DNA of 63,704 nucleotides, counting the filler. It is 5 parts of 5 records of this genome, joined end to end, with 100 filler letters (N's around TTAATTAATTAA, not from the genome) between each part and the next. Parts side by side here need not be neighbours in the genome. Positions count along the whole stretch, not along the records: positions 1 to 17,868 come from SRR22947725_3628; 4 more parts are not named here. The stretch is one strand, 5' to 3'. The notes beneath the pieces were generated by a model that saw only the letters and a program-made list of their open reading frames with translations, searched no databases and had not been told where the DNA came from. The translations under genes and the position numbers were made by a program. This document shows positions 1,681 through 17,968 of the stretch, piece after piece (the stretch's first letter is position 1; every line of letters begins with the position of its first letter).

Positions 1681-4600
1681 ATGAAAAGCTTCAAAAAAAT
1701 TCTAATTGCTAACCGAGGTGAAATTGCAATTCGCATAATGCGAGCAGCAAATGAAATGGGTAAACGAACTGTTGCGATCTATGCCGAAGAAGACAAACTG
1801 GGGTTACATAGGTTCAAAGCAGACGAGGCATACCGAATTGGTAAAGGTATGGGACCAGTAGCAGCTTATCTATCGATTTCTGAGATTATTCGAGTTGCCA
1901 AAATGTGTGGTGCAGATGCAATACATCCAGGGTATGGACTTTTATCTGAAAATCCAGATTTTGTTGATGCTTGTGAAGAAGCTGGTATTAAATTTATTGG
2001 CCCAAAAGCTGAAACAATGCGGAAGTTAGGTGATAAGGCTTCAGCTAGGCGTGTTGCAATGGAGGCTGGAGTTCCTGTTGTACCTGCAACCGATGTTTTA
2101 CCTGATGACATGAATGAAGTACGGCGCATGGCAGAAGAAGTTGGTTATCCATTTATGCTTAAGGCATCATGGGGTGGCGGTGGACGTGGAATGCGTCCAA
2201 TTATGGATGCTAGCGAATTAGAAGAAAAAGTTCTTGAAGGTAGAAGAGAAGCTGAAGCTGCATTTGGAAATGGTGAAGGATATCTGGAAAGACTTGTTCA
2301 GAAAGCTCGTCATGTTGAAGTGCAAATCTTAGGTGATAGCTTTGGTGAGATTTATCATTTATATGAGCGTGATTGTTCTGTTCAAAGACGCAATCAAAAA
2401 GTTGTAGAACGTGCTCCTGCACCATATCTAACAGAAGAACAACGATTAGAAATTTGCAGTTTGGGGCGTAAAATTTGCGCTCATGTTGGCTATGAATGTG
2501 CCGGGACTGTTGAGTTTTTGATGGATATGGACACAGAAGAATTTTTCTTTATTGAGGTTAACCCTCGCGTCCAAGTAGAACACACAGTTACAGAAGAAGT
2601 AACTGGAATAGATATTGTTCGAGCACAAATAAAAATTGCAGAAGGTAAAACTTTAGCCCGCTCTACGGGTGCAAATTCTCAAGCAGACATAAAATTAAAT
2701 GGGCATGCTTTACAAACTCGCATCACAACTGAAGATCCACAAAATAATTTCATACCAGATTATGGGCGAATTTCTGCATATAGATCTGCTACCGGCCTTG
2801 GCATACGATTAGACGGTGGAACTGCTTATTCAGGGGCAGTAATTACCCGTTATTATGACAGCTTACTGGTGAAAATTACTGCTAAAGCATCAAGTCCAGA
2901 AAATGCTATAGCAAGAATGGATAGGGCATTACGTGAGTTTAGGATTCGCGGTGTTTCTACTAATATCGCATTTGTAATTAATTTACTAAAACACCCTACA
3001 TTTCTGGATAATTCTTATACAACTAAATTTATCGATAACACAGAAGAACTTTTTGATTTCAAACCTCGCCGAGATCGTGCAACAAAAATCTTAAATTATA
3101 TTGCAGATATAACGGTTAATGGTCACCCTGATGTTCAAGGCAGAGCAATACCACATGCAAAAGCAAGAGTGCCAAAAATACCACCTAACTTAGAAAATAA
3201 ACCATCGTATGGAACACGTAACCTGTTAGAGGAAAAAGGCCCTCAAGCCGTTGCTAATTGGATGGCTGAGCAGAAAAAGTTACTCATAACTGACACGACT
3301 ATGCGAGATGGACATCAGTCTTTACTTGCTACTCGCATGCGAAGTTATGACATGATTAAGATTGCAGATACGTATGCTCAAAATATTCCTCAATTATTTT
3401 CGATGGAATGTTGGGGCGGAGCAACTTTTGATGTTTCATATCGTTTTTTACAAGAATGCCCCTGGCAACGTCTAAGAGATCTTCGTAAAAAAATGCCAAA
3501 TCTTATGACGCAAATGTTGCTTAGAGCCAGTAATGGTGTTGGTTACACAAATTATCCAGATAACGTAGTGCAAGAATTTGTTAGGCAAGCCGCAGAAACA
3601 GGTGTTGATTTGTTTAGGGTTTTTGACAGCTTAAATTGGGTCGAAAATATGCGTGTGGCTATGGATGCCGTTATTGAAAATGGTAAAATATGTGAAGGTA
3701 CTATTTGTTATACTGGCGATATACTAAATCCAGATCGTGCAAAATACGATTTGAATTACTACGTGAAAATGGGGAAAGAACTTAAATCTTCTGGTGCGCA
3801 CATACTTGGATTAAAAGATATGGCGGGATTATTGAAACCAGCCGCTGCAAAAATATTGATTAAAGCGTTAAAAGAAGAAGTTGGCATGCCAATACACTTC
3901 CATACACATGATACATCAGGAATATCTGGAGCTACAATTTTAGCTGCTGCTGAAGCTGGCGTGGATGCAGTAGATGTAGCTATGGACGCATTCTCTGGCG
4001 GCACATCGCAACCGTGCCTCGGATCAGTTATTGAAAGTTTACGCCATACTGATCGTGATACTGGCATTGATATGGAGGCTGTTCGAGGAATTAACGAATA
4101 CTGGGAAGGTGTTCGCGAACAATATGTTGCTTTTGAAAGTGGTATATCAGCTCCAGCATCTGAAGTATATTTACATGAAATGCCAGGTGGCCAATTTACA
4201 AATTTGAAGGCACAAGCAAGATCACTTGGCATTGAAGACAGATGGCCAGAAGTTGCTCATACTTACGCTGATGTGAATCAAATGTTTGGAGATATTGTAA
4301 AAGTTACGCCTTCTTCAAAGGTTGTAGGCGATATGGCTCTGATGATGGTTACTCAAGATTTATCAAGGGAAGATGTCGAAAATCCAAAAACTGAAGTTGC
4401 GTTCCCAGAAAGTGTAGTGGATATGATGCGTGGCAATTTAGGTCAACCTGAAGGAGGCTTTCCAGATGCTATTTTATCAAAAGTTCTTAAAGGTGAAGCG
4501 CCTATTACTACAAGACCTGGGGAACATTTAAAGCCTTTAGATTTATCTTTAGAAAAAACAAAATTGGTAGACCTACTAGATGGTGATCGTGTAGATAATG

Positions 4601-5127
4601 AAGATCTAAATGGCTACTTAATGTATCCTAAAGTATTTTTAGACTATAGAGGTCGCCATAAAGAATATGGCCCAGTCAGAACTTTGCCTACGAATACTTT
4701 TTTCTATGGAATGAAATCTCGCGACGAAATTAGTGTGGAAATTGATCCAGGAAAAACATTAGAAATTCACCTAATTGCGGTTGGAGACGCTGATGAAGAA
4801 GGCGTAGTTCGAGTATTTTTTGAATTAAATGGCCAGCCTCGCACGGCAAGGGTCATTGACAGATCAAAAGCTGCAACAAGTATAAAGCGTCCAGTCGCAG
4901 AACTTGGAAATACTGCACATATTGGTGCACCAATGCCTGGTGTGATAAGCTCTGTAGTTGCTACTGTTGGACAGAAAGTAAATGCTGGAGATTTATTATG
5001 TACTATAGAAGCCATGAAGATGGAGACGGGAATAAGTGCCGAAATTGATGGCATTATTAAAACCATACATTCTCCAGCAGGAACTCAAGTTGATGCAAAG
5101 GATTTGCTAATAGAATTTGAAAGTTAA
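1681..5127 (+). CDS. pyc: Pyruvate carboxylase
   Basis: 1148 aa with biotin carboxylase (ANRGEIAIR, QRRNQKVVE), carboxyltransferase (RDGHQSL, HFHTHDT) and biotin carrier (EAMKME) domains. Confidence 0.98.
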   Translation: MKSFKKILIANRGEIAIRIMRAANEMGKRTVAIYAEEDKLGLHRFKADEAYRIGKGMGPVAAYLSISEIIRVAKMCGADAIHPGYGLLSENPDFVDACEEAGIKFIGPKAETMRKLGDKASARRVAMEAGVPVVPATDVLPDDMNEVRRMAEEVGYPFMLKASWGGGGRGMRPIMDASELEEKVLEGRREAEAAFGNGEGYLERLVQKARHVEVQILGDSFGEIYHLYERDCSVQRRNQKVVERAPAPYLTEEQRLEICSLGRKICAHVGYECAGTVEFLMDMDTEEFFFIEVNPRVQVEHTVTEEVTGIDIVRAQIKIAEGKTLARSTGANSQADIKLNGHALQTRITTEDPQNNFIPDYGRISAYRSATGLGIRLDGGTAYSGAVITRYYDSLLVKITAKASSPENAIARMDRALREFRIRGVSTNIAFVINLLKHPTFLDNSYTTKFIDNTEELFDFKPRRDRATKILNYIADITVNGHPDVQGRAIPHAKARVPKIPPNLENKPSYGTRNLLEEKGPQAVANWMAEQKKLLITDTTMRDGHQSLLATRMRSYDMIKIADTYAQNIPQLFSMECWGGATFDVSYRFLQECPWQRLRDLRKKMPNLMTQMLLRASNGVGYTNYPDNVVQEFVRQAAETGVDLFRVFDSLNWVENMRVAMDAVIENGKICEGTICYTGDILNPDRAKYDLNYYVKMGKELKSSGAHILGLKDMAGLLKPAAAKILIKALKEEVGMPIHFHTHDTSGISGATILAAAEAGVDAVDVAMDAFSGGTSQPCLGSVIESLRHTDRDTGIDMEAVRGINEYWEGVREQYVAFESGISAPASEVYLHEMPGGQFTNLKAQARSLGIEDRWPEVAHTYADVNQMFGDIVKVTPSSKVVGDMALMMVTQDLSREDVENPKTEVAFPESVVDMMRGNLGQPEGGFPDAILSKVLKGEAPITTRPGEHLKPLDLSLEKTKLVDLLDGDRVDNEDLNGYLMYPKVFLDYRGRHKEYGPVRTLPTNTFFYGMKSRDEISVEIDPGKTLEIHLIAVGDADEEGVVRVFFELNGQPRTARVIDRSKAATSIKRPVAELGNTAHIGAPMPGVISSVVATVGQKVNAGDLLCTIEAMKMETGISAEIDGIIKTIHSPAGTQVDAKDLLIEFES

Positions 5128-5161
5128 TAAATTTAAGTCTGGGGAAAATCTCCGCACTTAT

Positions 5162-5788
5162 TTACTTTTGAGCCAAGACTAATTTAGTGGCTAATAGAAT
5201 AAAAATAATGCCCGCAAACTTATTCATCCAAAGCATTGCGCCATTAGAATTACGTAGCCATTTTCCTAAAAAACTTGCCAAAAGTGCGAATGAAGAAAAT
5301 ATAAAAATAGTAGTCATAATCATCAGTCCACCAAGCTGATAAAACTGTGAAACTATTTGACCTAATTTTGGGTCCACAAACTGAGGTAATAAAGCCAAAA
5401 AAAATATGGTTACTTTAGGGTTGGTAATATTCATTATTAACCCCCGCCTATATAATGCTAGCCAAGTCTCCCTTGGAGCTTTTTCATTGCCCAATTTTGT
5501 TTTGCCTGCGTAGAATGCTTTATATGCAAGATAAGTTAAATAAGCTGCACCAATATATTTTATTGTATTAAAGGCAAATTGGGAACTTTCAAAAACTGCA
5601 GCAACACCAAAAGCAACTGCAGATGTATGAAATATTAATCCAGTGGCCAATCCTAAAGTAACAAATATTCCAGACAAACGGCCATATAACGCAGATTGCG
5701 TTAATACAAATATATTATCTGGCCCAGGTACCAGTGCTAATGCAAAAGTAAATCCACAAAATGTAATCGCAGTATCAATAGGTATCAT
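5162..5788 (-). CDS. LysE/RhtB family amino acid efflux protein
   Basis: PGPDN and NITNPK motifs, multiple TM helices. ATGA overlap with the upstream permease. Confidence 0.93.
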   Translation of the reverse strand: MIPIDTAITFCGFTFALALVPGPDNIFVLTQSALYGRLSGIFVTLGLATGLIFHTSAVAFGVAAVFESSQFAFNTIKYIGAAYLTYLAYKAFYAGKTKLGNEKAPRETWLALYRRGLIMNITNPKVTIFFLALLPQFVDPKLGQIVSQFYQLGGLMIMTTIFIFSSFALLASFLGKWLRNSNGAMLWMNKFAGIIFILLATKLVLAQK

Positions 5789-7479
5789 CTTGAGGCCCTA
5801 GCAATAATTGCAACTGCTATCATACCAACCAAAATAACTATGATCGATGCGCCTGATGCACCCTCTATATCTTCTAATGAGGCCGCATTATAAATTTGAG
5901 TAGATAAAGTTTCAAAACCAAAAGGCCGTAACAACAGTGTAGCAGGAAGCTCTTTGATACTATCTACAAATACAAGTAACAATGCAATTAACATAGATGA
6001 CCAAATCATTGGAACATGTACTCTTGATAATGTTTGAGAAGGATTTAATCCTAAGGACCTTGCGGCATGTCCTATATTAGGTGAGAAGCGACCCATTGCA
6101 CTATCTATTGAACCAAATGCTAAAGCAAAAAATCTTACGCTATATGCAAATATTACAGCAGTAGCAGATCCTGTTAGAAGTAATCCAATATTAATTCCAG
6201 AAAAATTTTCAATAAAATCTGCTAAAGATCTATCAAAATATGCCATTGGTAATAATATTCCTAACGCTAGAACTGCACCAGGTGCTGCATATCCAATTGT
6301 TGCTATGGGAGCTATAATTCTTGGCAAAGTTGATTGAGAAGATCTTATGCCAAAAATTAAAATTAAGGCTGCGCCAACAGTAAAGATTGCAGCTAAAAAT
6401 CCAACCCAAATAGATGTCCAAGTGGCTCGTAGGAATGTTGGACTTGTCCATAAATTATCAACATTAAAAGCATGATCTAACATAATTAAAAATGGCATGA
6501 TAAAGCCAAATAAAACTGGCAAGGAACAAAGTATAGCTATCAGAATACCTTTCCAAAATGGAAGAACATCCCTTATGGGTAACATAGATTGATTATCCCT
6601 TTGATGTACTCGCATCTTACGACGGCTAAAGCGTTCAAATACTACGAGAGAAATCACTATAATGAAAATGACCATTGCAATTTGTGCTGCTCCTCCAACA
6701 TTTGAAGCTTCCAACCAAACTGTAAATATTCCCGTAGTAAGTGTTTGAACTGCAAAAAATTCAACTGCACCAAAATCATTTAATGCTTCCATCATAACTA
6801 GTGCAATTCCAATTGCTATTGCAGGGCGCGCAAGAGGTAATGAAACTAACCAAAAAGCTCTCCATGGACCTGCACCTAATGCTCTTGATACCTCAAAAGT
6901 TCTACTTGATTGATCGCGAAAGGCTGCTCGAGCTAATAAATAAACATATGGATATAGAGACATGGAAATAACAAAGATTGCGGCTCCAATTGAACGCACT
7001 TGTGGAAAGTAATAATCTTTGGAGCTTTGCCAATCAAAAAAATCTCTTAAAAACGTTTGAACTGGACCAGCATATTCCCAAAAATCAACAAAACTGTAAG
7101 CTCCAATATAAGCTGGGATAGCAAGTGGGAATAAAAGGACCCATTCCAAAATTCGGCGCAACGGAAAGTCTTTAGTTACAACCATCCAAGCACAACCAGT
7201 ACCTACAATACTTGAAATAAATGCAACTGAGATCATTATTATTAAAGAATTTGATAAATACCGAGATAAACTAGTAGCAATTAAGTGCGGCCATATATTT
7301 TCTGCAGGAAAGAATGCCATCCAGATTATTGCTGCAATAGGCAATAGCACAAGTGCAGCAATAATAATTGAAAATATTACCCATCGATCACAATTGAGCC
7401 TGTACCTAAAATTTATTTTTTTACTCAAATTTGCTTCCATATTTATCGAATAGCTTATGGACAATTGCATGTCTAGCAA
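5785..7479 (-). CDS. Fe(III) ABC transporter permease (FbpB/FutB family); true start may be downstream, e.g. ATG at 7440
   Basis: Two ABC permease repeats, motifs YPYVYLLARAAF, EALNDFG, KELPATLLLRPF. Confidence 0.92.
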   Translation of the reverse strand: MLDMQLSISYSINMEANLSKKINFRYRLNCDRWVIFSIIIAALVLLPIAAIIWMAFFPAENIWPHLIATSLSRYLSNSLIIMISVAFISSIVGTGCAWMVVTKDFPLRRILEWVLLFPLAIPAYIGAYSFVDFWEYAGPVQTFLRDFFDWQSSKDYYFPQVRSIGAAIFVISMSLYPYVYLLARAAFRDQSSRTFEVSRALGAGPWRAFWLVSLPLARPAIAIGIALVMMEALNDFGAVEFFAVQTLTTGIFTVWLEASNVGGAAQIAMVIFIIVISLVVFERFSRRKMRVHQRDNQSMLPIRDVLPFWKGILIAILCSLPVLFGFIMPFLIMLDHAFNVDNLWTSPTFLRATWTSIWVGFLAAIFTVGAALILIFGIRSSQSTLPRIIAPIATIGYAAPGAVLALGILLPMAYFDRSLADFIENFSGINIGLLLTGSATAVIFAYSVRFFALAFGSIDSAMGRFSPNIGHAARSLGLNPSQTLSRVHVPMIWSSMLIALLLVFVDSIKELPATLLLRPFGFETLSTQIYNAASLEDIEGASGASIIVILVGMIAVAIIARASR

Positions 7480-7546
7480 ATGGCAAAGATTAAAATAGAA
7501 ACTGCATATTAATAATACAAAATTAATTGCAATTAATTAATTTTAA

Positions 7547-7804
7547 TTACATGCCAAGTGCTTCTTTATACAATTCAAGAACTGCCTCTTCTTCTGAAAT
7601 TTCATGTGGTTCACGTTTTCGGAGTCCTACAATCTTCCTAAGAACTTTAGTGTCATATCCACGGCCCTTGGCTTCTGCCATTACTTCTTTTTGTTGGTCA
7701 GCTATATCTTTTTTTTCTGCATCTAAACGCTCAAAACGTTCAATAAAAGCTCGCAATTCATCAGATGCTACTCGATAGGATGATTGGCTTGTTTCTTCAT
7801 TCAT
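7547..7804 (-). CDS. gapR: DUF2312 / GapR-family nucleoid-associated protein
   Basis: ELRAFIERFERLDAEKKDI and EAKGRGYDTKVLRKIV are the DUF2312 signature; typical of Alphaproteobacteria. Confidence 0.93.
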   Translation of the reverse strand: MNEETSQSSYRVASDELRAFIERFERLDAEKKDIADQQKEVMAEAKGRGYDTKVLRKIVGLRKREPHEISEEEAVLELYKEALGM

Positions 7805-7842
7805 TGGTAAACCTTATTTTTTATTAGTTGCCTGACTACTTT

Positions 7843-7865
7843 GCCCTTGCCGCGTCTGCAAGGGC
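7843..7865. repeat. GC-rich inverted repeat GCCCTTGC-N7-GCAAGGGC in the divergent gapR promoter region
   Basis: Perfect 8-bp arms in an otherwise AT-rich intergenic region. Confidence 0.6.
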
Positions 7866-7922
7866 TAGGGTATCAAAAGTTATACTTTTTGTGTTTTAAA
7901 TAATGTTTAGAAAGATAGATTA

Positions 7923-8126
7923 ATGATAATCACAGGCGCAATTATTACAATATTAGGATTATTAGGTTTGTTCTATTGCATCCTGAAAGCATTCAAAGCA
8001 AGGCGTACAGGATTAAAAGGTCAAGAATTGGCTAACCAACTTAAGGAGTTGGTATTAGTAAACTTAGTGTCATTATTTTTATCTGCTATAGGGCTTGGAT
8101 TAGTTATTTTTGGCATACTAATTTAA
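7923..8126 (+). CDS. Small two-TM membrane protein of unknown function
   Basis: 67 aa, two hydrophobic helices separated by a basic loop; fills the gap between neighbouring genes. Confidence 0.75.
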   Translation: MIITGAIITILGLLGLFYCILKAFKARRTGLKGQELANQLKELVLVNLVSLFLSAIGLGLVIFGILI

Positions 8127-8140
8127 AATAATTTTATTAA

Positions 8141-8917
8141 CTAAATAAGCCTATCAGTTATTAAATTTATAGAGGAACATATCAGTTCCATACATTTATC
8201 AGTAGAAAAGCGATGATCTGCATCTTTAACAATTGTTAATTCTACGTCATTCCCAGTAATATGATCTATAAGTTGTAATGGAATACCCAGCTTAACATCA
8301 TTATCTGCGGTTCCATGAAAAAGATGTATTGGAAATGGTATATTTAGTGGATCACGCATTACTAAATTATTGCGTCCATCATCGATCAATTTTTTTGTTA
8401 TAGGATATGGTTGACCATAATCATTTTGAATATAAACAACACCAGATCTTGTCAATGTAGCACGCATCATATCATCCATTTTATTCCAAATGATATCTTC
8501 TGTAAAATCGGGTGCAGCAGCAATACCAATGATACCTAAAATTTGATTAGGTATACGTTTAGCCATTAACAATGATATCCATCCACCCATTGAAGAGCCA
8601 ACTAATATTTGTGGGCCACTAGTTAAATGTGATATTATTTCAAAAGCATCTTCTGCCCAATCTCCTATGGATCCTTTAATAAAATCTTCAGAGCTTTGTC
8701 CATGGCCCGAATAGTCAAATCTAATAAAAGGCTGGCCTCTTTCCTTTGCCCAATTTTCTAAATGAATAGCTTTACTACCATCCATATCTGATGAGAACCC
8801 ACCTAAAAAAACAATTCCAGCTCCTTCACCTTGCGTCTGGTGATATGCAATTTTACGCCCCTGTCCAGTTATAAGAATATTAGGTTTTATCATTTCTGCC
8901 TCGTTAATATTATTCAT
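8141..8917 (-). CDS. Alpha/beta hydrolase (ABHD10-like)
   Basis: RFDYSGHG, nucleophile elbow GSSMGG, HGTAD and DHRFS catalytic motifs. Confidence 0.92.
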   Translation of the reverse strand: MNNINEAEMIKPNILITGQGRKIAYHQTQGEGAGIVFLGGFSSDMDGSKAIHLENWAKERGQPFIRFDYSGHGQSSEDFIKGSIGDWAEDAFEIISHLTSGPQILVGSSMGGWISLLMAKRIPNQILGIIGIAAAPDFTEDIIWNKMDDMMRATLTRSGVVYIQNDYGQPYPITKKLIDDGRNNLVMRDPLNIPFPIHLFHGTADNDVKLGIPLQLIDHITGNDVELTIVKDADHRFSTDKCMELICSSINLITDRLI

Positions 8918-9040
8918 ATCTTTATCTCAAATAATTTAACTAGTCATTACCCAGAAAAAAGAAAAATAGTTTTTTCAAAGTAGCCCATTACTTGACAATA
9001 TAATCAATTCTGGCAAAAGCATATCACATAACTTCAACCG

Positions 9041-9057
9041 AGCGTTCAGTAGGCGCT
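9041..9057 (+). promoter_or_regulatory. Putative thrS leader hairpin resembling a tRNA-Thr anticodon arm
   Basis: AGCGT-[TCAGTAG]-GCGCT forms a 5-bp stem (one G-U) with a 7-nt loop whose central triplet is AGT (NGU). It lies 21-37 nt upstream of the ATG; TTGACA occurs at 8992-8997. Confidence 0.5.
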
Positions 9058-9077
9058 AAAACGAAAGAATTGCTCCA

Positions 9078-11027
9078 ATGTCACAAATTTCAATAACACT
9101 TCCCGATGGTAACGTTCGAAAATATGCTGCCGGTATAACTGGAATGGACATTGCTAAAGACATTTCTACTTCACTTGGAAAAAAAGCAATTAGTTGTTCG
9201 ATAAATGGAAAACATTGTGACCTATCGCAAGTTATTCAAAGTGATGTTGATTTCGCAATTTTTACTATGCAAGATGATGTACAAGCCTTAGAACTCATAC
9301 GTCATGATTGCGCCCATATCATGGCACGAGCAGTTCAAGAAATTTGGCCAGACGTTCAAGTCACAATTGGACCAGTAATTGATAATGGCTGGTATTATGA
9401 TTTTGATCGCAAAGATCCGTTTAATCCGGAAGATTTATCTACAATTGAAAAAAAGATGCGTGAAATAATTAATTTAAAGGATTCAGTTCGAAGAGAAATC
9501 TGGGATCGTGAGCGCGCAATAAAATATTATAAAGACAATAATGAACCATATAAAGTTGAATTAATTAATAGTATTCCAGGCAATGAGGACCTATCTATGT
9601 ATTGGCATGGATACTGGCAAGATTTATGCCGCGGTCCACATTTAGTTCATACAGCCCAGATACCAAGCGATAGCTTTAAATTAATGTCAGTTGCAGGCGC
9701 TTACTGGCGAGGTGATAGTAACAACACAATGTTACAAAGAATCTATGGCGTTGCCTTCCAAAATAAAAATGACTTGAAAGCACATTTAACAATGCTCGAA
9801 GAAGCGGCATTGCGTGATCATAGAAAATTAGGTCGTGAAATGGATTTGTTTCACATGCAAGAAGAAGCACCAGGACAAATATTTTGGCATCCAAATGGAT
9901 GGCGTATTTATACAACCTTACAAGATTATATGCGACGTATGCAGGACAAAAATGGATATGTAGAAGTCAACACCCCTCAAGTTGTTGACCGTAAACTTTG
10001 GGAAGCGTCAGGCCACTGGGAAAAATATCAAGAAAACATGTTCATAGTCGAAGTCGATGAAGATCATGCCCGTGAAAAAGCAATAAATGCATTAAAGCCA
10101 ATGAACTGCCCATGCCATGTTCAGATATTTAACCAAGGCTTAAAATCATATAGAGATTTACCATTAAGAATGGCAGAATTTGGATCATGTAACCGCTATG
10201 AACCATCAGGTGCTCTACATGGTATCATGCGAGTTCGCGGCTTTACTCAGGATGATGGGCATATTTTTTGTAGTGAAGAGCAAATTGAGTCTGAAACAAA
10301 AATTTATATAGATTTTCTTTCAAATGTTTATAAAGATTTAGGCTTTGATGATTTTAAAGTAAAATTCTCAGATCGCCCTGATAAGCGCTCTGGTTCAGAC
10401 GAAGTATGGGATAAGGCTGAAAAAGCACTACTTTCTGCAACTCGAGCAGCTGGAATTGAACCAGAACTAAATATTGGTGAAGGTGCTTTTTATGGTCCAA
10501 AATTAGAGTTTGTTCTAACAGATGCAATTGGTAGAGATTGGCAATGTGGGACACATCAAGTAGATTTTGTTTTACCAGATCGCTTAGATGCATCTTATAT
10601 AGGTAAAGATGGAGATAAGCATCGTCCAGTAATGTTACATCGCGCCACATTAGGTTCCTTTGAGCGTTTTATTGGAATATTAATTGAAAGCCATGCTGGT
10701 AAATTACCATTTTGGTTAGCACCTAGACAAGTTGTTGTTGCTTCAATTGTAAGTGACGCAAATGACTATGTGATAAAAAAAGTCTCAGAACTAAATAATT
10801 TAGGAATTCGGGCTGAAGCCGATATTCGTAATGAAAAAATTAATTATAAAGTACGTGAGCATTCTCTTGGGAAGGTTCCAGTAATTTTAGCTGTTGGGGC
10901 AAGAGAAGTACAAGACAATACGGTAACTCTTCGACGACTAGGTCAAAAGCAGACAGAAGTTAAACAATTTGAAGAAATTCTTTCAAAACTAAGCTTAGAG
11001 TCTACTCCTCCAGATCTGAGAAATTAA
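9078..11027 (+). CDS. thrS: Threonine--tRNA ligase
   Basis: TGS domain, editing motifs RHDCAH and DLCRGPH, catalytic RDHRKLG, KPMNCP and GAFYGPK. Confidence 0.99.
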
Positions 11028-11068
11028 AAACCTACATTTGATATGATTAAGATAAAAAGTTAAATTTA

Positions 11069-11833
11069 TTATTTAAGAGGTAGCTTGAGACGCTCTCTAA
11101 GGTTATCTAAACCAATGATCAAATCGTTGGATAATCCAGATTTTTCCATATGCTTTCTGAGAGTTTGATTTAATCCACCTGAAGTATTTAAAGCATCTAA
11201 AGCATCATGTAAGTCTATTTTATTATTTTCTGAAACACTAATAAGGTATTCACCTAACATTTTTAAAACATAAGTTTCTGAGTTATTTTTATCATTAGTA
11301 AAATGTGATAACCATTTACTTGAAATTTGAGCTTGGTGCAAAATAACAGAAGCCATTGCACTCACAGCAAAATGTGCATTTAATCCTGTTTCTGAATTAA
11401 CAATAAATACGTTATTTTTTTTACCAAATAAATCAGAAACTATTGAACTTGTCGGAAAACATGGTAGCGGGCAATTTCCCGTATCAATGAAGGGCAATGG
11501 TATAGTTATTTCTATTTTATTGAGTGGGTTGCACAAAATATTTAATTCTGAAAAAGAAACATCCACCATTACAGATATAATTTTTTTATCATCTGGAAAA
11601 TATAATTTTGATAACACTACTGATGCAATATCTTTAAGAAGACATAAAATAATGATATCAGATTTATTAATGATATCCTGATTATTGGAAATTTGAACGT
11701 CATTTAATAATGATAATTTATTCGAAAATTTTACTCCACGTTTTGACACATAAATTTTATGTCCCATGTCAGTAAGGCCATTTACCATAGCTGATGCTAT
11801 TTCTCCAGTACCAATAAAGCCAACTGAAGCCAT
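11069..11833 (-). CDS. Pyrroline-5-carboxylate reductase-like NAD(P)-dependent oxidoreductase (divergent ProC paralog)
   Basis: Rossmann motif GFIGTGEIA and ProC-like length. C-terminal TSGGLN replaces the canonical SPGGTT. TAATG overlap with the upstream gene. Confidence 0.8.
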   Translation of the reverse strand: MASVGFIGTGEIASAMVNGLTDMGHKIYVSKRGVKFSNKLSLLNDVQISNNQDIINKSDIIILCLLKDIASVVLSKLYFPDDKKIISVMVDVSFSELNILCNPLNKIEITIPLPFIDTGNCPLPCFPTSSIVSDLFGKKNNVFIVNSETGLNAHFAVSAMASVILHQAQISSKWLSHFTNDKNNSETYVLKMLGEYLISVSENNKIDLHDALDALNTSGGLNQTLRKHMEKSGLSNDLIIGLDNLRERLKLPLK

Positions 11834-14253
11834 TAAGTTCGCAACCTCCGTCCTTGTGGGTCAAATGGTGCTTCAGCTAGCTGGATCGCCAGATGAGGAA
11901 TGCCAAGGATAGCAATATTAAATTGATTTCCTGCACCAACATATTCAGTTTTCACAAAACATAATGCTAATGATTTATTAACCGTATAGCCATAAGCTCC
12001 AGAGCTAACTCTACCAACTGGAGTCCCATCATTAAGGAAGATCGGTTCACCGCCACTTGCATCTGCGTTTTTTGCTTTAACTTCAAGTATAACCAGTTGC
12101 TCTCGAGACTTTTTATATTGCAATTTTTTATAAGCTTTTTTCCCTAAAAAATCTGGTTTATCCATTTTTATTAAACTTTCTAAACCCACTTCTTGAGGCC
12201 AGTATTCTGGACTATATTCACGACCCCATGAACCATATCCTTTTTCTATCCGCAAACTAGTTAATGCGCGACTTCCAACAGGTTTTACTTTGAGATCTGA
12301 ACCCATCTCAAATAGTGCTTCATATAATTTAATCTGGTTTTTTTCTTTAACATAGACTTCCCATCCAAGATCCCCAGTAAATGAAATGCGAATTGCTATG
12401 GCCTCTTCACCAACTATTGAAATTTTTTTTGATTGCATGAACTTCCAATTATCTGTGCGGAAATCAGTTTGGCTTAATCTAGCTAAAAGTTCACGAGATT
12501 TGGGTCCAGCGATGTTAAAGCCACAGTATTCAGATGTTTTACTGATAAATGAAACTTCTCTAGGCAATGTAATAGAATTAAAATATCTTTGATGATATCT
12601 TTCAGCCATACCTGATCCAACCATCCAATAATGATCATCAGCTAATTGAGTTATAGTAAAGTCTCCGGCTATTCCTCCTCTTGTTCCTAACAATGGCGTT
12701 AAACAAGAAAAGCCAATTTTATTTGGCACTTTATTTGCAACAATTTTGTCAAGCCAATCGCGAGAGCCAGGACCTTTTATTTCATATTTTGCAAAATTTG
12801 ATATATCAATTATTCCAACACCAGATCGTAAAGCACGACATTCATTACCAACATATTCAAACCAATTTTGGCGATCAAAACCATAAGTATCTTTGCCTTT
12901 TTGTCCCTCGCCGGCAAACCACAAAGGATGTTCCCATCCAAAATTTAAACCAAATACAGCCCCTAAAGATTTTTGTTTTTGGTAAATAGGCCGCATTTTT
13001 ACTGGGCGGCCTGCCTCTCGTTCTTCATTAGGAAAATGGATTTTAAATCGATTAGAATATTGATCCTGAACTCTGGCTTTAGTAAATTTTTTGTTAGCCC
13101 ACGAACCAAATCTAGCAACATCCCATGGAAACATGTCAAACTCTGGCTCTCCATCTATTATCCATTGAGCAGTCATTAATCCCAAACCACCTGACTGGCT
13201 AAAGCCAGGAATTATCCCATTACAACAGAAATATCCTGTTAACTCTGGAACTGGCCCATAGAGTGCAGAACTATCTGGTGACCATATCATAGGGCCATTT
13301 ATTATACGTTTTATACCAACGCCTGCAGCGGCAGGTACTCTATCCATTGCACGCATAATATTTTCCATAATTCGGTCTAAATCATCTGCAAATAACTCAT
13401 GCCCAAATCCACTGGGTGTTTCGTCTTCAGCCCAGAACTTCACATCTTTTTCATAAGCTCCTATGAGCAATCCATTACCTTCTTGCCGCATATAATACTC
13501 TCCATCACGGTCAGCTACAGAAGATAATCTAAATTTTAACTTTTCAATTTCAGGGATTGTATCTGTAACAAGATATTGATGTTCAGTCGGTTGTAGAGGT
13601 AATTTAACACCAGCCATTGCAGCCACTTCCCTACCCCATAAACCAGCAACGTTCACAACCCATTGTGTATTTATAGTTCCATTTGGTGTTATCACATCCC
13701 AAGTTTTATTTTCATTTTGATTTGTGGCTATAACTGGAGTAAATCTATGTATATCAGCTCCCATTTTTCGTGCGCCTGAAGCATAAGCTTGAGTAACACC
13801 AGATGGGTCAACATTGCCACCATCAGGTTCAAACATTACACATCTTACACCTTCATAATTAACCAATGGATTTTTTAGTTTTGCTTCTTCAATAGACAAT
13901 TCATAAAAATCTGTTTTAAAATATTTAGCTTTGGCTGCTTGGATGCGCAGTTGATGTTCTCTTTGTTCAGTTTGCGCCAAATATAGAGATCCTGGTTGAA
14001 AGACACCACAACCTTGGCCTGTTTCTATTTCTAAATCCTTATATAATTGCATAGTATAGTACTGCAATTTTGATATGTTATTATTATCATGAAGACCATG
14101 TAGATTAGCTGCAGCATGCCATGTTGACCCTGAAGTTAATTCATCGCGCTCTAATAAAACAACGTCTTTCCAACCTAATTTTGCTAAATGATAGAGTATT
14201 GAACACCCAATCAAACCGCCACCAATTACAACTGCTTGAGCATGGGTTTTCAT
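11833..14253 (-). CDS. FAD-dependent dimethylglycine/sarcosine dehydrogenase-like protein with GcvT (THF-binding) domains
   Basis: 806 aa, GGGLIG FAD motif, GSTWHAA flavinylation His, EHQY, RISFTGDLGWE, SLRIEKGY. Confidence 0.93.
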   Translation of the reverse strand: MKTHAQAVVIGGGLIGCSILYHLAKLGWKDVVLLERDELTSGSTWHAAANLHGLHDNNNISKLQYYTMQLYKDLEIETGQGCGVFQPGSLYLAQTEQREHQLRIQAAKAKYFKTDFYELSIEEAKLKNPLVNYEGVRCVMFEPDGGNVDPSGVTQAYASGARKMGADIHRFTPVIATNQNENKTWDVITPNGTINTQWVVNVAGLWGREVAAMAGVKLPLQPTEHQYLVTDTIPEIEKLKFRLSSVADRDGEYYMRQEGNGLLIGAYEKDVKFWAEDETPSGFGHELFADDLDRIMENIMRAMDRVPAAAGVGIKRIINGPMIWSPDSSALYGPVPELTGYFCCNGIIPGFSQSGGLGLMTAQWIIDGEPEFDMFPWDVARFGSWANKKFTKARVQDQYSNRFKIHFPNEEREAGRPVKMRPIYQKQKSLGAVFGLNFGWEHPLWFAGEGQKGKDTYGFDRQNWFEYVGNECRALRSGVGIIDISNFAKYEIKGPGSRDWLDKIVANKVPNKIGFSCLTPLLGTRGGIAGDFTITQLADDHYWMVGSGMAERYHQRYFNSITLPREVSFISKTSEYCGFNIAGPKSRELLARLSQTDFRTDNWKFMQSKKISIVGEEAIAIRISFTGDLGWEVYVKEKNQIKLYEALFEMGSDLKVKPVGSRALTSLRIEKGYGSWGREYSPEYWPQEVGLESLIKMDKPDFLGKKAYKKLQYKKSREQLVILEVKAKNADASGGEPIFLNDGTPVGRVSSGAYGYTVNKSLALCFVKTEYVGAGNQFNIAILGIPHLAIQLAEAPFDPQGRRLRT

Positions 14254-14483
14254 TATTCTTCTCTTCCATAGGATATAAGTATTTCACGTATTTTTTGCGA
14301 ACGATGATCCCCATCTTCAAGTGCATAAACATATGCTTGAGTAATTAAAAAGCATCCTGATTTAATTTTTGATTTATTCAATTCTTCAATGCCTAGCATT
14401 AAATATATATCTACTAAAATATTTAATGTTTTATTTTTATGAGCATCTAAAACTTTAGAATTTAAACGATCAATTCTACTCAC
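14253..14483 (-). CDS. Small helical hypothetical protein; probable GTG start at 14483 (ORF track starts at 14507)
   Basis: Coupled on both sides (GTGAGTAG with the Rieske stop, TAATG with the flavoprotein start). Contains CFLITQAYVYALE...GRE. Confidence 0.75.
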   Translation of the reverse strand: MSRIDRLNSKVLDAHKNKTLNILVDIYLMLGIEELNKSKIKSGCFLITQAYVYALEDGDHRSQKIREILISYGREE

Positions 14484-15633
14484 GGTTTGCTTGCCCTTTT
14501 CGACCAATATTAATCTGAGTTGCTATCCATTCATGGAACAAATGTGTGGGGCCATCCATTATTGGAGAAAATTTGCCACCATCAAAAAATTTACCATTTC
14601 TACCTGTCTGCATACCTTCAACAACAAATATATCTTCTTTAAAAACATCTTTCCAAAAATTTTTGTTCTTTATACGTAAGTCCTTAAATTCAGAATTGCT
14701 TGCCTCAGAAGCAGCGTAATAAATTGCAACATGCTCTCGAGTTTTATTGATACTTTCAGGTTCTAAAATTATTGCATATGTATGATCTCGATGAACGCCT
14801 AATAATACATTAGGGTAAAGTGAAATATATTCTGATGCAGTATCCCATTTTTTATCCAGCCCGCTAAAATCCGGAAAAACCTCATCATTTTCTCCTTTTA
14901 ATTGAGAATATACATAAGAACCCTGACCTGAATATTTTAATGGTTTTTCTAAATGATAATGATCCTCAAGCCTTGAAACTAAATTCAACCCAGGGTGAAC
15001 CCAAGGCAGATGATAACTCTCACAATAGTTTTCCACTGCTAGTTTCCAGTTACTATTTACAGATAACTCAAACGAACTATCAATATTATGGTAAAGTGGT
15101 TTATCAAATTCTTGCCATCGATTTATTATATCTGTGTGCACTTCCTCAAATGGAGCTGCTTCATTCGAAATGTTAACAAAAATTACATCCATAAAAACAT
15201 AACTTCTTATCTCAATGAGGCCCAATTCATTTCTTTTTATATCTGGATGTGTATTTAGCCCTGGCCCTCCCACATGAGGTGTTGAGCGTAATTGACCATC
15301 CAATCCATAACACCAAGAATGATATGGGCACCGAATTGTCCCTCGTATGTTCTTTTTTTCTGAAATTAAAATCATACCACGATGACGGCATGTATTTTGA
15401 TATACTCGAACCGTTTGATCATTATCACGAGCAACTAATAATGGCATGCCGAGGAAATTAATGGGATTTACATCCCCTATATTCATAACATCTTTCGCAA
15501 AGCCTATTGCTGACCAGTTTGCAAATAAAACACTTTCTTTTTCTTCTTGATGAACCATGTCATCAATGTAATGTTCATTAGGCAAGCCTTTAGCAATATT
15601 TATTGGTTTTATTACAAGTGATAAATCTGACAT
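14476..15633 (-). CDS. Rieske non-heme iron oxygenase alpha subunit (choline/betaine monooxygenase-like)
   Basis: Rieske motif CRHRG...CPYH and mononuclear Fe motif NYCESYHLPWVH...ED. Start placed at ATG 15633 because AGGAG lies at 15641-15645. Confidence 0.93.
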   Translation of the reverse strand: MSDLSLVIKPINIAKGLPNEHYIDDMVHQEEKESVLFANWSAIGFAKDVMNIGDVNPINFLGMPLLVARDNDQTVRVYQNTCRHRGMILISEKKNIRGTIRCPYHSWCYGLDGQLRSTPHVGGPGLNTHPDIKRNELGLIEIRSYVFMDVIFVNISNEAAPFEEVHTDIINRWQEFDKPLYHNIDSSFELSVNSNWKLAVENYCESYHLPWVHPGLNLVSRLEDHYHLEKPLKYSGQGSYVYSQLKGENDEVFPDFSGLDKKWDTASEYISLYPNVLLGVHRDHTYAIILEPESINKTREHVAIYYAASEASNSEFKDLRIKNKNFWKDVFKEDIFVVEGMQTGRNGKFFDGGKFSPIMDGPTHLFHEWIATQINIGRKGQANRE

Positions 15634-15702
15634 TTTAAAACTCCTAACTTTATAAATTATTTCCATAATTTATAAAACTAAACAACCGAGTTTTATTTAC
15701 AC

Positions 15703-15725
15703 ATAGATGAAATAATTTCATCTAT
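15703..15725. promoter_or_regulatory. Putative LysR operator: perfect palindrome ATAGATGAAAT-A-ATTTCATCTAT
   Basis: 11-bp perfect inverted repeat containing T-N11-A (TGAAATAATTTCA), about 80 nt upstream of the Rieske ATG and overlapping the LysR stop codon. Confidence 0.7.
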
Positions 15726-16603
15726 TTCTGCAATACCAGCCAGTCACTAAAAATCTTTGAATATTTTTTTGGATTACCATTTGAACGTATTAAATAAAAT
15801 TTTCCAGGTGCTTTTATTTCATAGTTTGTTAATGGTACTAAACTCCCATTTTCAATCAATGGAGCAACTAATTTTTTCCACCCTAAGACAACACCCATAC
15901 CATCTTGTGCTAACTGTAAGGCTATAGAATAATTATTTACACGATGACGGACGGATACCTCACCTACAAACCCTAATGTAACAAACCAGTTTGTCCAACT
16001 TGTCCAATTAGTTTCTTTAGCATCGAGATGTATCAAATGAGATTTAGAAAGCTTCTGAAGACTTGTTATATTTTTTTCTTCAAATTTTGGACTACATAAA
16101 GGTAATAATGTGTCTTCAAATAAAACATCATGAGGCTCTTTCGGAGCGAATGATGAATATTCAATAATCATATCCAAACTTAATGGCCTTTTAAATGGAC
16201 GATCTCTAACTTCTTGGTTTATTTGAACATGGCCATATTCACGCCAAAATTGTGCTATTTTTTGTGATAACCACATAGATAATACAGCAGTAGTTGAACC
16301 TATTGATATTTGTTGCGTTTCGCTTAGGTCACGTATCTTTTTTATGATTTGGCTCAATTCATTTAAAGAATTTGATACAACTTTATATAATTCTATACCA
16401 TCTGGGGTTAATTGAACTGTTCTAGACTGCCGGTAAAATAATTGTATACCCAATTCATTTTCTAAACTACGTATTTGGTGGCTTATTGCTCCAGGAGTAA
16501 CACATAATTCATCTGCAGCGTCTTTAAAAGATCTATGCCTTGCAGCAACCTCAAATGTACCAAACATTTTTAAAGACGGTAATCCATAATTTTGTTTTAC
16601 CAT
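15722..16603 (-). CDS. LysR family regulator, GcvA-like subgroup
   Basis: N-terminal HTH LPSLKMFGTFEVAARHRSFKDAADELCVTPGAISHQIRSLE and a LysR substrate-binding domain. Confidence 0.96.
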   Translation of the reverse strand: MVKQNYGLPSLKMFGTFEVAARHRSFKDAADELCVTPGAISHQIRSLENELGIQLFYRQSRTVQLTPDGIELYKVVSNSLNELSQIIKKIRDLSETQQISIGSTTAVLSMWLSQKIAQFWREYGHVQINQEVRDRPFKRPLSLDMIIEYSSFAPKEPHDVLFEDTLLPLCSPKFEEKNITSLQKLSKSHLIHLDAKETNWTSWTNWFVTLGFVGEVSVRHRVNNYSIALQLAQDGMGVVLGWKKLVAPLIENGSLVPLTNYEIKAPGKFYLIRSNGNPKKYSKIFSDWLVLQK

Positions 16604-16614
16604 TATTATTTCCT

Positions 16615-16635
16615 GAAGTGAGTTAATCTCGTCTA
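16615..16635. promoter_or_regulatory. Second, degenerate copy of the putative LysR operator upstream of the LysR gene
   Basis: GAAGTGAGTTAATCTCGTCTA matches TAGATGAAATAATTTCATCTA (15704-15724) at 14 of 21 positions. Confidence 0.5.
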
Positions 16636-16773
16636 AATATGCTTAAAAAAATTACTTTAGGCAAACTATTCTTTCTAATAAAATTATAAGAACATTTAAT
16701 TAAATGATTATTTAAATTATAATTTATGCAAAACATGCTTGGGGCAAATCAATTGCCATGATAAAGAAATCTA

Positions 16774-17187
16774 ATGAAATCATTATTCCATATTGCATAC
16801 CATGTCACCAATCTGAACAAAGCACGCGAATTTTATGGTGATTTATTGGGATGTATTGAAGGTCGTTCAACAGACACTTGGGTGGACTTTGATTTCTTTG
16901 GCCATCAAATTTCATTGCATATCGGAAAACCCTTTGAAACGTCTAACACTGGTAAAGTTGGTGATCACATGGTTCCAATGCCACACATCGGTATTATTCT
17001 TTCATTGGAGAACTGGCTTGTTATTGCTCAGCGTTTAGGAGATGCGAACATAAAATTTGAAATTCCACCAGTTATACGCTTCAAAGACGAGCCTGGGGAA
17101 CAACGCACAATGTTCTTTCGTGACCCATCCGGAAACCCTATTGAAATTAAAGGCTTTAAAAATTTCAAAACAATCTTTGAGGTATAA
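16774..17187 (+). CDS. VOC/glyoxalase family protein (COG3565-like)
   Basis: FHIAYHV, WVDFDFFGHQ, PHIG and FFRDPSGNPIE metal-ligand motifs. Confidence 0.9.
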   Translation: MKSLFHIAYHVTNLNKAREFYGDLLGCIEGRSTDTWVDFDFFGHQISLHIGKPFETSNTGKVGDHMVPMPHIGIILSLENWLVIAQRLGDANIKFEIPPVIRFKDEPGEQRTMFFRDPSGNPIEIKGFKNFKTIFEV

Positions 17188-17188
17188 A

Positions 17189-17527
17189 TTGATTATTTAC
17201 AAAATTTTACGAGCTGAAGAATGGGCCGTCTTGAGAGATAATGGCAAATCACAAGGTGCACCAATTGATATAAAAGATGGATACATTCACTTTTCAACTG
17301 CTAATACAGTTTCAGAAACTGCAAATAAGTACTTTAAAAATGAAGATGACCTCATTTTATTGGCATTTAACGATACAGATTTAGGAAAAAATCTTAAATA
17401 TGAAAAATCTCGTGGAGGTTTATTATTCCCTCATTTGTATGATGAATTGAACTTGGAAGATGCGTTATGGATAAAACCTTTAATAAAAGAAGGTAAATCA
17501 CACGTATTTCCGGAAGATCTTAAATGA
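17189..17527 (+). CDS. DUF952 family protein; probable TTG start at 17189
   Basis: IYKI, DGYIHFST and LFPHLY motifs. GAGGT SD at 17179-17183. Directly upstream of pyrD as usual in Alphaproteobacteria. Confidence 0.9.
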   Translation: MIIYKILRAEEWAVLRDNGKSQGAPIDIKDGYIHFSTANTVSETANKYFKNEDDLILLAFNDTDLGKNLKYEKSRGGLLFPHLYDELNLEDALWIKPLIKEGKSHVFPEDLK

Positions 17528-17868
17528 AAATTATAGAAAAAATTGGTCTAAAAGTATTATATAAAACGGATCCTGAACGTGCACATCATCTAGCAATTAA
17601 GGCATTAAAATTTGGTTTAACCCCAAAACCTGGTCTCTATACAAGTGAACGATTAAAGCAAAATATAGCTGGGCTTAATCTGCTTAATCCAATTGGATTA
17701 GCTGCAGGATTCGATAAGAATGCAGAAGCCATTGAACCTTTGTTAAAATCTGGTTTTGGATTTATTGAAGTTGGTGCTGCCACCCCATATCCACAAAAAG
17801 GAAACAAAAAACCACGTTTATTTCGCCTAAATGAAGATCAAGGGTCAATTAATAGATTTGGATTTAAT
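17524..17868 (+). CDS. pyrD: Quinone-dependent dihydroorotate dehydrogenase (class 2), 3'-truncated
   Basis: DPERAH, NPIGLAAGFDKN, GNKKPRLFRL, INRFGFN. Confidence 0.96.
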
Positions 17869-17968
17869 NNNNNNNNNNNNNNNNNNNNNNNNNNNNNNNN
17901 NNNNNNNNNNNNTTAATTAATTAANNNNNNNNNNNNNNNNNNNNNNNNNNNNNNNNNNNNNNNNNNNN
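17869..17968. other. Artificial contig spacer (44 N + TTAATTAATTAA + 44 N)
   Basis: Six-frame stop linker, identical at four positions; genes are truncated on both sides. Confidence 0.99.

Follow-up and report, generated by a model that had tools for sequence, protein, structure and literature searches.

A LysR-linked operon with a group Va-like Rieske oxygenase, a candidate for methylated osmolyte breakdown in marine Roseobacters

Introduction

Rieske oxygenases that act on quaternary amines are divided, as set out in PMC7948474, between group Va (CntA, choline monooxygenase (CMO) and OxyBAC), in which a Tyr or Phe at position 203 makes a pi-cation contact with the substrate and the known members hydroxylate carbon and release an aldehyde, and group Vb (GbcA/BmoA and Stc2), in which an Asn at this position goes with binding of the substrate carboxylate on the iron and removal of N-methyl groups. 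HpbB1C1 and HpbB2C2, which demethylate proline betaine in Paracoccus, are assigned to the GbcAB family (bioRxiv 10.1101/2023.12.12.567942), and in the breakdown of homarine the ring is opened before demethylation, giving N-methylglutamate (PMC13236597). Here we describe an operon of five genes at positions 11069-16603 of a window (the whole stretch of DNA analysed, 63,704 nucleotides made of joined parts of five records, to which all window coordinates refer). The operon most likely serves to degrade a methylated, nitrogen-containing osmolyte along an uncharacterised route.

Methylated nitrogen osmolytes rank among the main currencies exchanged between phytoplankton and bacteria, and the MtgBCD route for glycine betaine and the route for homarine were found only in 2025-2026. 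No paper on the Rieske family of the window or on its combination of genes was found in the literature, although published fitness and proteome tables may bear on them.

Operon architecture and gene content

All five genes lie on the minus strand and are co-oriented. Their content, determined by Pfam and NCBIfam profile searches with curated cut-offs, and the candidate operator are as follows (lengths in amino acids, aa).

15722-16603, minus strand: LysR-family regulator resembling GcvA, DsdC and the choline-sulfate regulator, 293 aa (Pfam HTH_1 and LysR_substrate)
15703-15725: candidate LysR binding site, an 11+11 palindrome that has a T-N11-A core and shares bases with the LysR stop codon
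14476-15633, minus strand: Rieske non-heme-iron oxygenase alpha subunit, 385 aa (Pfam Rieske and Ring_hydroxyl_A)
14253-14483, minus strand: four-helix (TPR-like) protein with a GTG start, 76 aa, without known family
11833-14253, minus strand: flavoprotein of the dimethylglycine dehydrogenase (DMGDH) family, 806 aa (DAO, FAO_M, GCV_T and GCV_T_C)
11069-11833, minus strand: divergent NAD(P)H oxidoreductase of the pyrroline-5-carboxylate (P5C) reductase (P5CR) fold, 254 aa (F420_oxidored; P5CR fold), called ProC-like below

The open reading frame of the Rieske gene spans 14476-15666, of which the ATG at 15633, with AGGAG upstream of it, is likely the true start. Start and stop codons overlap at the gene junctions (GTGAGTAG, TAATG and TAATG). 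The initial annotation of this DNA had described translationally coupled, co-oriented genes behind a LysR gene, and these can be read directly in the sequence; each of its domain calls agrees with the profile searches.

Three genomes were used as stand-ins for that of the window, G001 (the genome of locus L004), G002 (of L002) and G003 (of L179; HTCC2255), with G001, at 2.7 Mb, being the nearest complete genome and possessing the same five genes. The closest proteins and loci are from Amylibacter and HTCC2255-type Roseobacters, in keeping with the Roseobacter host that had been presumed. Conservation was followed in three sets of loci, namely the 80 best Rieske loci (in 67 of which the sequence continues downstream for 4.5 kb or more), 48 orthologous DMGDH loci and 80 HpbD loci, and co-occurrence in 201 evenly drawn genomes of the host family, with kinship uncorrected in the statistics.

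The order LysR, Rieske, small protein and DMGDH recurs in many genomes and contigs from RNA libraries bridge the gene junctions, so this arrangement is not a matter of chance. The full set including the ProC-like gene was found at one of the 80 Rieske-anchored loci and at 9 of the 48 DMGDH-anchored loci. The conserved core consists of the Rieske gene and the small protein, often with LysR, and the DMGDH gene is present in approximately one quarter to one half of loci. The four genes behind the regulator do not co-occur as the set that had been anticipated, the ProC-like gene being clade-specific. The wider proposal, that the operon is LysR-controlled, translationally coupled and directed at a solute that is N-methylated or a quaternary amine, is supported, as is the view that the cluster is distinct from the characterised glycine-betaine and stachydrine (Hpb/Stc) genes, given that its orthologs map to neither.

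The Rieske oxygenase and its small companion

The best solved relative of the Rieske protein is CntA (88 bits over residues 13-352). A CXH...CXXH cluster, a 2-His-1-carboxylate site and the bridging carboxylate E205 are all present, and C82, H84, C102, H105, Y203, E205, H208, H213 and D334 are invariant in 35 Rieske sequences. The position of CntA Y203 is occupied by Tyr in all 80 of 80 relatives, the residue of group Va, and the GbcA model NF058607 returns only 94 bits (cut-off 670), over the N-terminal half only. On these two grounds the protein is not a demethylase of the GbcA/Stc2 type, and it falls outside the group Vb of GbcA, BmoA, Stc2 and HpbB. It does not appear to be an ortholog of CntA either, since it carries the motif ESYHL (S206, L209) in place of ECYHC, in which the Cys206/Cys209 pair of CntA is found (PMC10952381), and its operon has no reductase.

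Judged from its sequence, the enzyme is a member of a group Va-like (CntA/CMO-like) orphan family rather than one of the betaine or stachydrine demethylases already known, and it looks like a carbon-hydroxylating, aldehyde-forming oxygenase. A sequential demethylation driven by a GbcA- or Stc2-like Rieske enzyme had been expected for this operon, and the first step of that scheme is not favoured by the uniform Tyr203 and the score on the GbcA model. In Paracoccus onubensis, a GbcA-like Rieske protein beside HpbD has Asn at position 203; given the Tyr of the window-type enzyme, the HpbB-like and window-type proteins of this species are not redundant copies.

Orthologs of the window Rieske gene, always in single copy, are present in 90 of the 201 genomes (approximately 45%), and in G001 it is the only Rieske oxygenase. 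Several orthologs carry the JGI label ‘choline monooxygenase’, an automatic annotation. A fusion protein of 1070 aa in G001 (L162 11029-14241; Fer4, DmmA-like_N and Fer2) is the only match in that genome to the PDR-type reductase of Phaeobacter; its gene adjoins Ldh_2, M19 dipeptidase and MR_MLE genes, and the protein is a possible electron donor.

The 76-aa protein is encoded downstream of the Rieske gene at 58 of the 80 loci, with a tblastn match at 60 of 80, and has a conserved core, CFYLTHAYVFALE. Its AlphaFold model is a four-helix bundle (pLDDT 88.9). There was no match to it in Pfam or NCBIfam and no PDB fold match at E <= 0.001, generic TPR- or MIT-like folds appearing only at E >= 0.5, and its matches in the Atlas were unnamed clusters only. 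Because it tracks the Rieske gene and not the DMGDH gene, we regard it as a probable auxiliary protein of the oxygenase, a partnership read from gene order. A role as electron donor was rejected, as it contains a single Cys and lacks an Fe-S motif.

The DMGDH-like flavoprotein and the canonical glycine-betaine genes

The 806-aa flavoprotein has the architecture of the DMGDH family and aligns with human DMGDH (5l46) at 613 bits over residues 2-794. There are six full-length DMGDH paralogs in G001, among which the window-type protein is the closest to mammalian DMGDH, at 613 bits against 587 for the next paralog tested against the human enzyme, although bit scores so placed cannot tell which paralog acts on dimethylglycine. 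Elsewhere in this genome (C1:1306000-1318000, L253) a DMGDH paralog of 847 aa, a GbdR-like AraC regulator, a homocysteine S-methyltransferase/BHMT-like gene of 300 aa and a DMGDH paralog of 817 aa are found together, an arrangement that we take to be the likely canonical glycine-betaine cluster. The window DMGDH-like gene is best classed as an accessory paralog, distinct from those linked to BHMT. G001 also has betA (865 bits, cut-off 732) and five MttB-family matches, and an argument for glycine betaine from a pathway hole was rejected because BHMT-like, MttB and betA genes are all present.

Across the 201 genomes, orthologs of the BHMT-linked 817-aa paralog were found in 124 and of the window-type DMGDH in 73. 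Both the Rieske gene and the window-type DMGDH gene were present in 60 genomes, the Rieske gene only in 30, the DMGDH gene only in 13 and neither in 98, giving an odds ratio, uncorrected for kinship, of 15 as against 5.6 for the BHMT-linked control paralog. At the Rieske-anchored loci, a DMGDH ortholog (at least 60% identity) was found in 21 of 80, and in 20 it lies downstream of the Rieske gene and in the same orientation. Among the 48 DMGDH loci, a Rieske gene lies upstream in 29 and is absent despite at least 5 kb of upstream sequence in 12, the upstream sequence being too short in the remaining 7.

The ProC-like protein

The protein encoded by the last gene misses both ProC cut-offs, at 140.4 bits on PRK06476 (cut-off 254) and 25.5 bits on TIGR00112 (cut-off 196.75). 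Its structural model (pLDDT 89.2) has the two-domain P5CR fold, and the top 50 PDB matches returned by Foldseek are all P5C reductases (TM 0.79-0.87, identity 14-21%). The ProC-like fold proposed in the initial annotation is therefore predicted to be a true P5C-reductase fold. The family has the motif T-[SP]-G-G-L-N in place of the S-P-G-G-T-T of canonical ProC enzymes. Identity with the housekeeping proC was rejected, as canonical proC is elsewhere in G001, and a role as electron donor was rejected on account of the P5CR fold.

The ProC-like gene was found downstream of DMGDH at 9 of the 48 loci (39-100% identity, HTCC2255 included), one of these being the sibling contig of the window, and it is an extra copy mainly confined to the HTCC2255/Amylibacter clade. 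Another of the nine, in an Amylibacter metagenome-assembled genome (L199 12435-13190), has an in-frame stop within the matched range, which may indicate a pseudogene or a sequencing error. Roseovarius has a ProC-like homolog of 33% identity between ALDH (aldehyde dehydrogenase) and MttB genes, near HpbD. SAR11 has relatives of the ProC-like gene (L165-L173) at 28-33% identity; at these loci, tblastn gave no match to any of the remaining four proteins of the operon.

The Rieske neighbourhood in relatives

At 9 of the 80 Rieske loci, from Leisingera, Phaeobacter, Shimia and Cribrihabitans, the Rieske gene and the small-protein gene are separated by more than 1 kb, a gap the size of one extra gene. 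The gene that fills it is an ALDH of 483 aa in L009, and the same ALDH occupies the same position in Paracoccus onubensis (L143), these being the two loci checked with Pfam. In one Rhizobiaceae locus the small-protein gene is followed by one for an L-piperidine-6-carboxylate (P6C) dehydrogenase (817 bits, cut-off 730). The ALDH and P6C dehydrogenase neighbours fit an aldehyde product, which a Va-type attack would yield. Assignment of the neighbouring ALDH as BetB was rejected, the BADH model giving 398 against a cut-off of 668.

The cluster of Phaeobacter italicus contains a divergent PDR-type reductase, an ALDH for which BADH is the best model, and a choline sulfatase. In Ruegeria the module is immediately preceded by genes for an HpbD ortholog (601 bits to 4e8g), MttB and BCCT. 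In Leisingera the operon runs on into a Zn-ADH and an HpbD-related MR_MLE gene, and the DAO, ALDH and DHDPS genes upstream resemble the hydroxyproline-betaine set. In many loci of the Sulfitobacter or Litoreibacter type, the Rieske and small-protein genes stand by themselves amid housekeeping genes.

The module lies within 10 kb of HpbD in approximately 18 of the 80 HpbD loci and adjoins it in some loci of Ruegeria, Leisingera, Shimia and Paracoccus. G001 does not carry the Hpb gene set, having no HpbD ortholog and a sole Rieske protein that is not of the GbcAB type. The cyclic-betaine substrate that had been suggested for this operon thus keeps a contextual footing in those genera where HpbD adjoins the module, but HpbD was found in only 10 of the 201 genomes.

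Two further arrangements were noted. In two relatives (L005 6257-8835 and L064 73-2713) the pxpABC genes for 5-oxoprolinase immediately precede the LysR-Rieske module and are transcribed away from it, which may point to a 5-oxoproline-like intermediate or may be coincidence. In several Ruegeria (L061, L060, L067 and L079) a flavin monooxygenase of approximately 490 aa (BVMO/ArsO-like) and an alpha/beta hydrolase are encoded downstream of the module, and in L061 they stand in place of the DMGDH gene.

Regulator, operator and expression

The best NCBIfam model for the regulator is GcvA at 186.8 bits, with chol_sulf_TF at 171.8; as the former falls under its cut-off of 288, the protein is predicted to be LysR-type but not GcvA itself. 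At 35 of the 80 Rieske loci the oxygenase gene is preceded, in the same orientation, by a LysR homolog. The palindrome at 15703-15725, ATAGATGAAAT/ATTTCATCTAT, is complementary at 11 of 11 positions with a spacer of 1 nt. Of seven relatives in the alignment, all seven retain its core, TGAA-N5-TTCA (T-N11-A), and the base changes among them are symmetric. The strong palindromic operator that had been reported is thus confirmed as a perfect 11+11 dyad with a T-N11-A box conserved in relatives.

Downstream of the LysR box, at 15660-15700 between the palindrome and the ribosome-binding site, 7 of 7 relatives conserve the block AATAAAACTCGGTTGTTTG with an invariant CTCGGTTG box; it could function as a promoter element or in activation. 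A second perfect palindrome, 12+12 and AT-only (TTTATAAATTAT/ATAATTTATAAA), is present at 15649-15676, just upstream of the Rieske ribosome-binding site. In sigma-70 and terminator scans, promoter-like sites were not enriched (23 found vs 27 expected).

Between 43 and 84% of the sampled words of the operon are contained in 14 metatranscriptome runs, and contigs from RNA libraries of three studies match 11416-16615, 12817-15651 and 11696-14275 at 99% identity. These contigs document presence in RNA libraries and bridged gene junctions; they are not proof of one transcript, and carry-over of DNA may contribute. In two runs the LysR-Rieske spacer is not covered, as the RNA contigs end at 15632/15651 and resume at 15706/15726, and in a third run the spacer is bridged. 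Since a DNA run would be needed for comparison, the contig ends near 15632-15651 and 15706-15726 are not taken to mark a transcript start.

Sequence context of the operon

A sibling contig (L164/L174) is 99.7% identical to window positions 3072-17868 and then diverges inside pyrD. In the window, pyrD at 17524-17916 is a stump of 130 aa, in the sibling contig it is complete at 352 aa, and a second full pyrD is present in the window at 58561-59625. Past the break at 17868, the GC content falls to 27-31%. The window from 17.9 to 63.7 kb is probably a chimeric misjoin or a rearrangement, and was therefore not used as context for the operon.

Proposed pathway and alternatives

The gene identities, folds, active-site signature, coupling, conserved operator, co-occurrence and presence in RNA libraries are observed; the kind of substrate and every chemical step given below are inferred. 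The reading that we favour, tentatively and as somewhat short of probable, is a LysR-activated, aerobic breakdown of a betaine osmolyte that would proceed apart from the canonical glycine-betaine route, by oxidative C-N attack, folate-linked demethylation and imine reduction. The Va-like Rieske enzyme, probably working with the 76-aa helical protein and receiving electrons from an unlinked reductase, would hydroxylate the carbon beside the charged nitrogen, and the unstable product would fall apart into an aldehyde and a tertiary amine. On a cyclic betaine such as proline betaine, this would open the ring and leave an N,N-dimethyl amino-aldehyde. The DMGDH-type flavoprotein would then, by analogy with its family, move the remaining N-methyl groups to tetrahydrofolate, and the amino-aldehyde, once demethylated, would close into a cyclic imine of the P5C or P6C type that the P5CR-fold enzyme could reduce. 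In relatives with an ALDH, the aldehyde would be oxidised to the acid.

A cyclic betaine (proline, hydroxyproline or pipecolate betaine) would suit this scheme, because the DMGDH paralog would be useful only with an N-methyl amino acid product, and ring opening would keep the aldehyde and the dimethylamino acid in one molecule. The more specific proposal, in which the Rieske enzyme and its dedicated 76-aa partner would open the ring of cyclic betaines oxidatively, turning proline betaine into N,N-dimethylglutamate semialdehyde as a second stachydrine-type route, is doubtful. If true, it would make a second and widespread stachydrine-type osmolyte route in marine Rhodobacteraceae, running via N-methylated glutamate derivatives and a dedicated DMGDH paralog.

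A number of observations weigh against this account. We know of no report of Rieske ring opening of proline betaine, and none was found in the literature. The Tyr/Asn rule for position 203 has few characterised enzymes behind it, and a Va pocket could hydroxylate an N-methyl group. There is no reductase gene in the operon, and the one candidate found in G001, in the 1070-aa fusion, is weak. Dimethylglycine stays a plausible substrate of the flavoprotein, because the window paralog is the nearest to mammalian DMGDH. The odds ratios were computed without phylogenetic correction, and the value of 5.6 for the control paralog indicates that betaine genes cluster generally. Of the 60 genomes with both a Rieske and a DMGDH gene, only 7 have the two side by side, and at least 12 DMGDH orthologs stand without a Rieske gene nearby, in uninformative contexts. 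HpbD is present in 10 of the 201 genomes, 7 of them with the Rieske gene, so that 83 of 90 Rieske genomes are without it, and no HpbD ortholog was found in G001 or HTCC2255; the link to proline betaine is for these reasons contextual and lineage-limited. Finally, G001 has no Pro_dh match, so a proline end product would not feed its catabolism.

The same genes could instead serve a second, O2-dependent route for glycine betaine, in which the Rieske enzyme would convert betaine to dimethylglycine and formaldehyde, the flavoprotein would be a true DMGDH and the ProC-like gene a passenger. This would make consecutive steps of the two translationally coupled enzymes, and would agree with the position of the window DMGDH nearest to the human enzyme (613 vs 587 bits), with the resemblance of the LysR protein to GcvA and the choline-sulfate regulator, with the PDR-type reductase, BADH-like ALDH and choline sulfatase of the Phaeobacter italicus cluster, with the BCCT transporters that lie nearby, and with the redundant Rieske enzymes for betaine described in P. 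denitrificans (bioRxiv 10.1101/2023.12.12.567942). It is nevertheless unlikely, given that the Rieske protein reaches 94 of the required 670 bits on the GbcA model, in its N-terminal half only, and has Tyr203 while the known betaine demethylases are placed in group Vb (PMC7948474), that G001 is already equipped with MttB genes and with the BHMT-linked cluster, in which two DMGDH paralogs and a GbdR-like regulator are encoded, and that the ALDH, P6C dehydrogenase, HpbD-like and P5CR-like neighbours would be left unexplained. The mechanism of the initial annotation, in which the Rieske enzyme would N-demethylate a cyclic betaine, the DMGDH-like protein take the second methyl and the ProC-like protein clear a ring imine, has in its favour the HpbD, MttB and BCCT genes that adjoin the module in Ruegeria, the P5CR fold of the last gene, and the Paracoccus pathway that pairs the LysR protein HpbR and a Rieske demethylase with the flavin demethylase HpbA (PMC3950512). 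We regard it as decidedly unlikely, as Tyr203 is found in 80 of 80 relatives while the HpbB-like enzyme in the same gene island of P. onubensis has Asn, as it would yield neither an aldehyde for the adjacent ALDH nor a ring imine for the reductase, and as 83 of the 90 Rieske genomes are without HpbD.

A third alternative follows the JGI names, and takes the Rieske protein for a bacterial choline monooxygenase that would form betaine aldehyde from choline as plant CMO does, the neighbouring genes performing later choline and betaine steps. CMO is itself in group Va (PMC7948474), bacterial CMO-like proteins are on record (PMC6157903), and in L009 the ALDH has BADH as its best model with a choline sulfatase downstream. 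The step would be redundant in G001, where betA scores 865 bits (cut-off 732), the window operon has no ALDH, those of relatives reach 398 against 668 for BetB, the conversion of choline to betaine aldehyde is not directly followed by that of dimethylglycine to sarcosine, and the JGI name is automatic; this alternative is very unlikely. It is also highly improbable that there is no single pathway, and that separable modules (Rieske with the small protein, DMGDH, and the P5CR paralog) have been packed together by lineage for different substrates. Such a mosaic would account for the adjacency of Rieske and DMGDH in 7 of 60 genomes, the DMGDH genes alone in at least 12 loci, the many Sulfitobacter- and Litoreibacter-type loci with the Rieske and small-protein genes alone, and the ProC-like gene in 9 of 48 loci. 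Against it stand the start/stop overlaps, a single conserved operator upstream, a gene order conserved across the HTCC2255/Amylibacter clade even where the ProC-like protein is down to 39-57% identity, an odds ratio of 15 above a background of 5.6, and the RNA-library contigs that bridge the junctions. Homarine and trigonelline were also considered as substrates and stay among the candidates; the hom operon is without a Rieske gene (PMC13236597).

Assignment of the substrate would supply a missing piece of models of carbon and nitrogen flux in the sea and extend the known chemistry of quaternary-amine Rieske enzymes, and would correct the automatic labels ‘choline monooxygenase’ and ‘aromatic ring-hydroxylating dioxygenase’. 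Cultured carriers are available in HTCC2255, Phaeobacter italicus, Ruegeria, Leisingera and Sulfitobacter.

Comparison with known systems

The glycine-betaine routes, which start with GbcAB/BmoAB or BHMT and proceed through DMGDH and a sarcosine oxidase or dehydrogenase, share with this operon a four-domain DMGDH-family enzyme and a GcvA-like regulator, but the BHMT-linked cluster is elsewhere in G001 and the window Rieske protein is not GbcA. Plant CMO and the bacterial CMO-like proteins share group Va and an aromatic residue at position 203; the bacterial proteins have no assigned function (PMC6157903), and G001 has betA. The Stc2 system of S. meliloti and the Hpb system of P. denitrificans have the same osmolyte-catabolic logic, with a LysR gene beside a Rieske enzyme and a flavin N-demethylase (PMC3950512), and differ in that their Rieske proteins are of the GbcAB family and group Vb with Asn203, to neither of which the window enzyme conforms.

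The homarine pathway (homABCDER and mgdABCD) resembles the proposed route in that an N-methylated ring is opened first and a methylated glutamate is an intermediate, and differs in using the FAD-type HomAB and no Rieske enzyme, a word that does not appear in the paper on it (PMC13236597). CntA/CntB of Acinetobacter baumannii offers the closest likeness at the active site, being an alpha-only Rieske enzyme with identical Y203, E205, H208, H213 and ED iron-ligand motif, and by analogy with CntA the window enzyme would be expected to hydroxylate next to N+, giving an aldehyde and an amine. It differs from CntA in that the similarity is low, there is no NCBIfam equivalog match and no CntB-type reductase is adjacent in the window, and the operon adds a small helical protein and a DMGDH paralog that would be superfluous for the release of trimethylamine. 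Quaternary-amine Rieske enzymes and folate-linked demethylation are both already known; the present operon adds an orphan group-V Rieske family that comes with a small protein of its own, shares its distribution with a DMGDH paralog and is represented in RNA libraries from marine samples.

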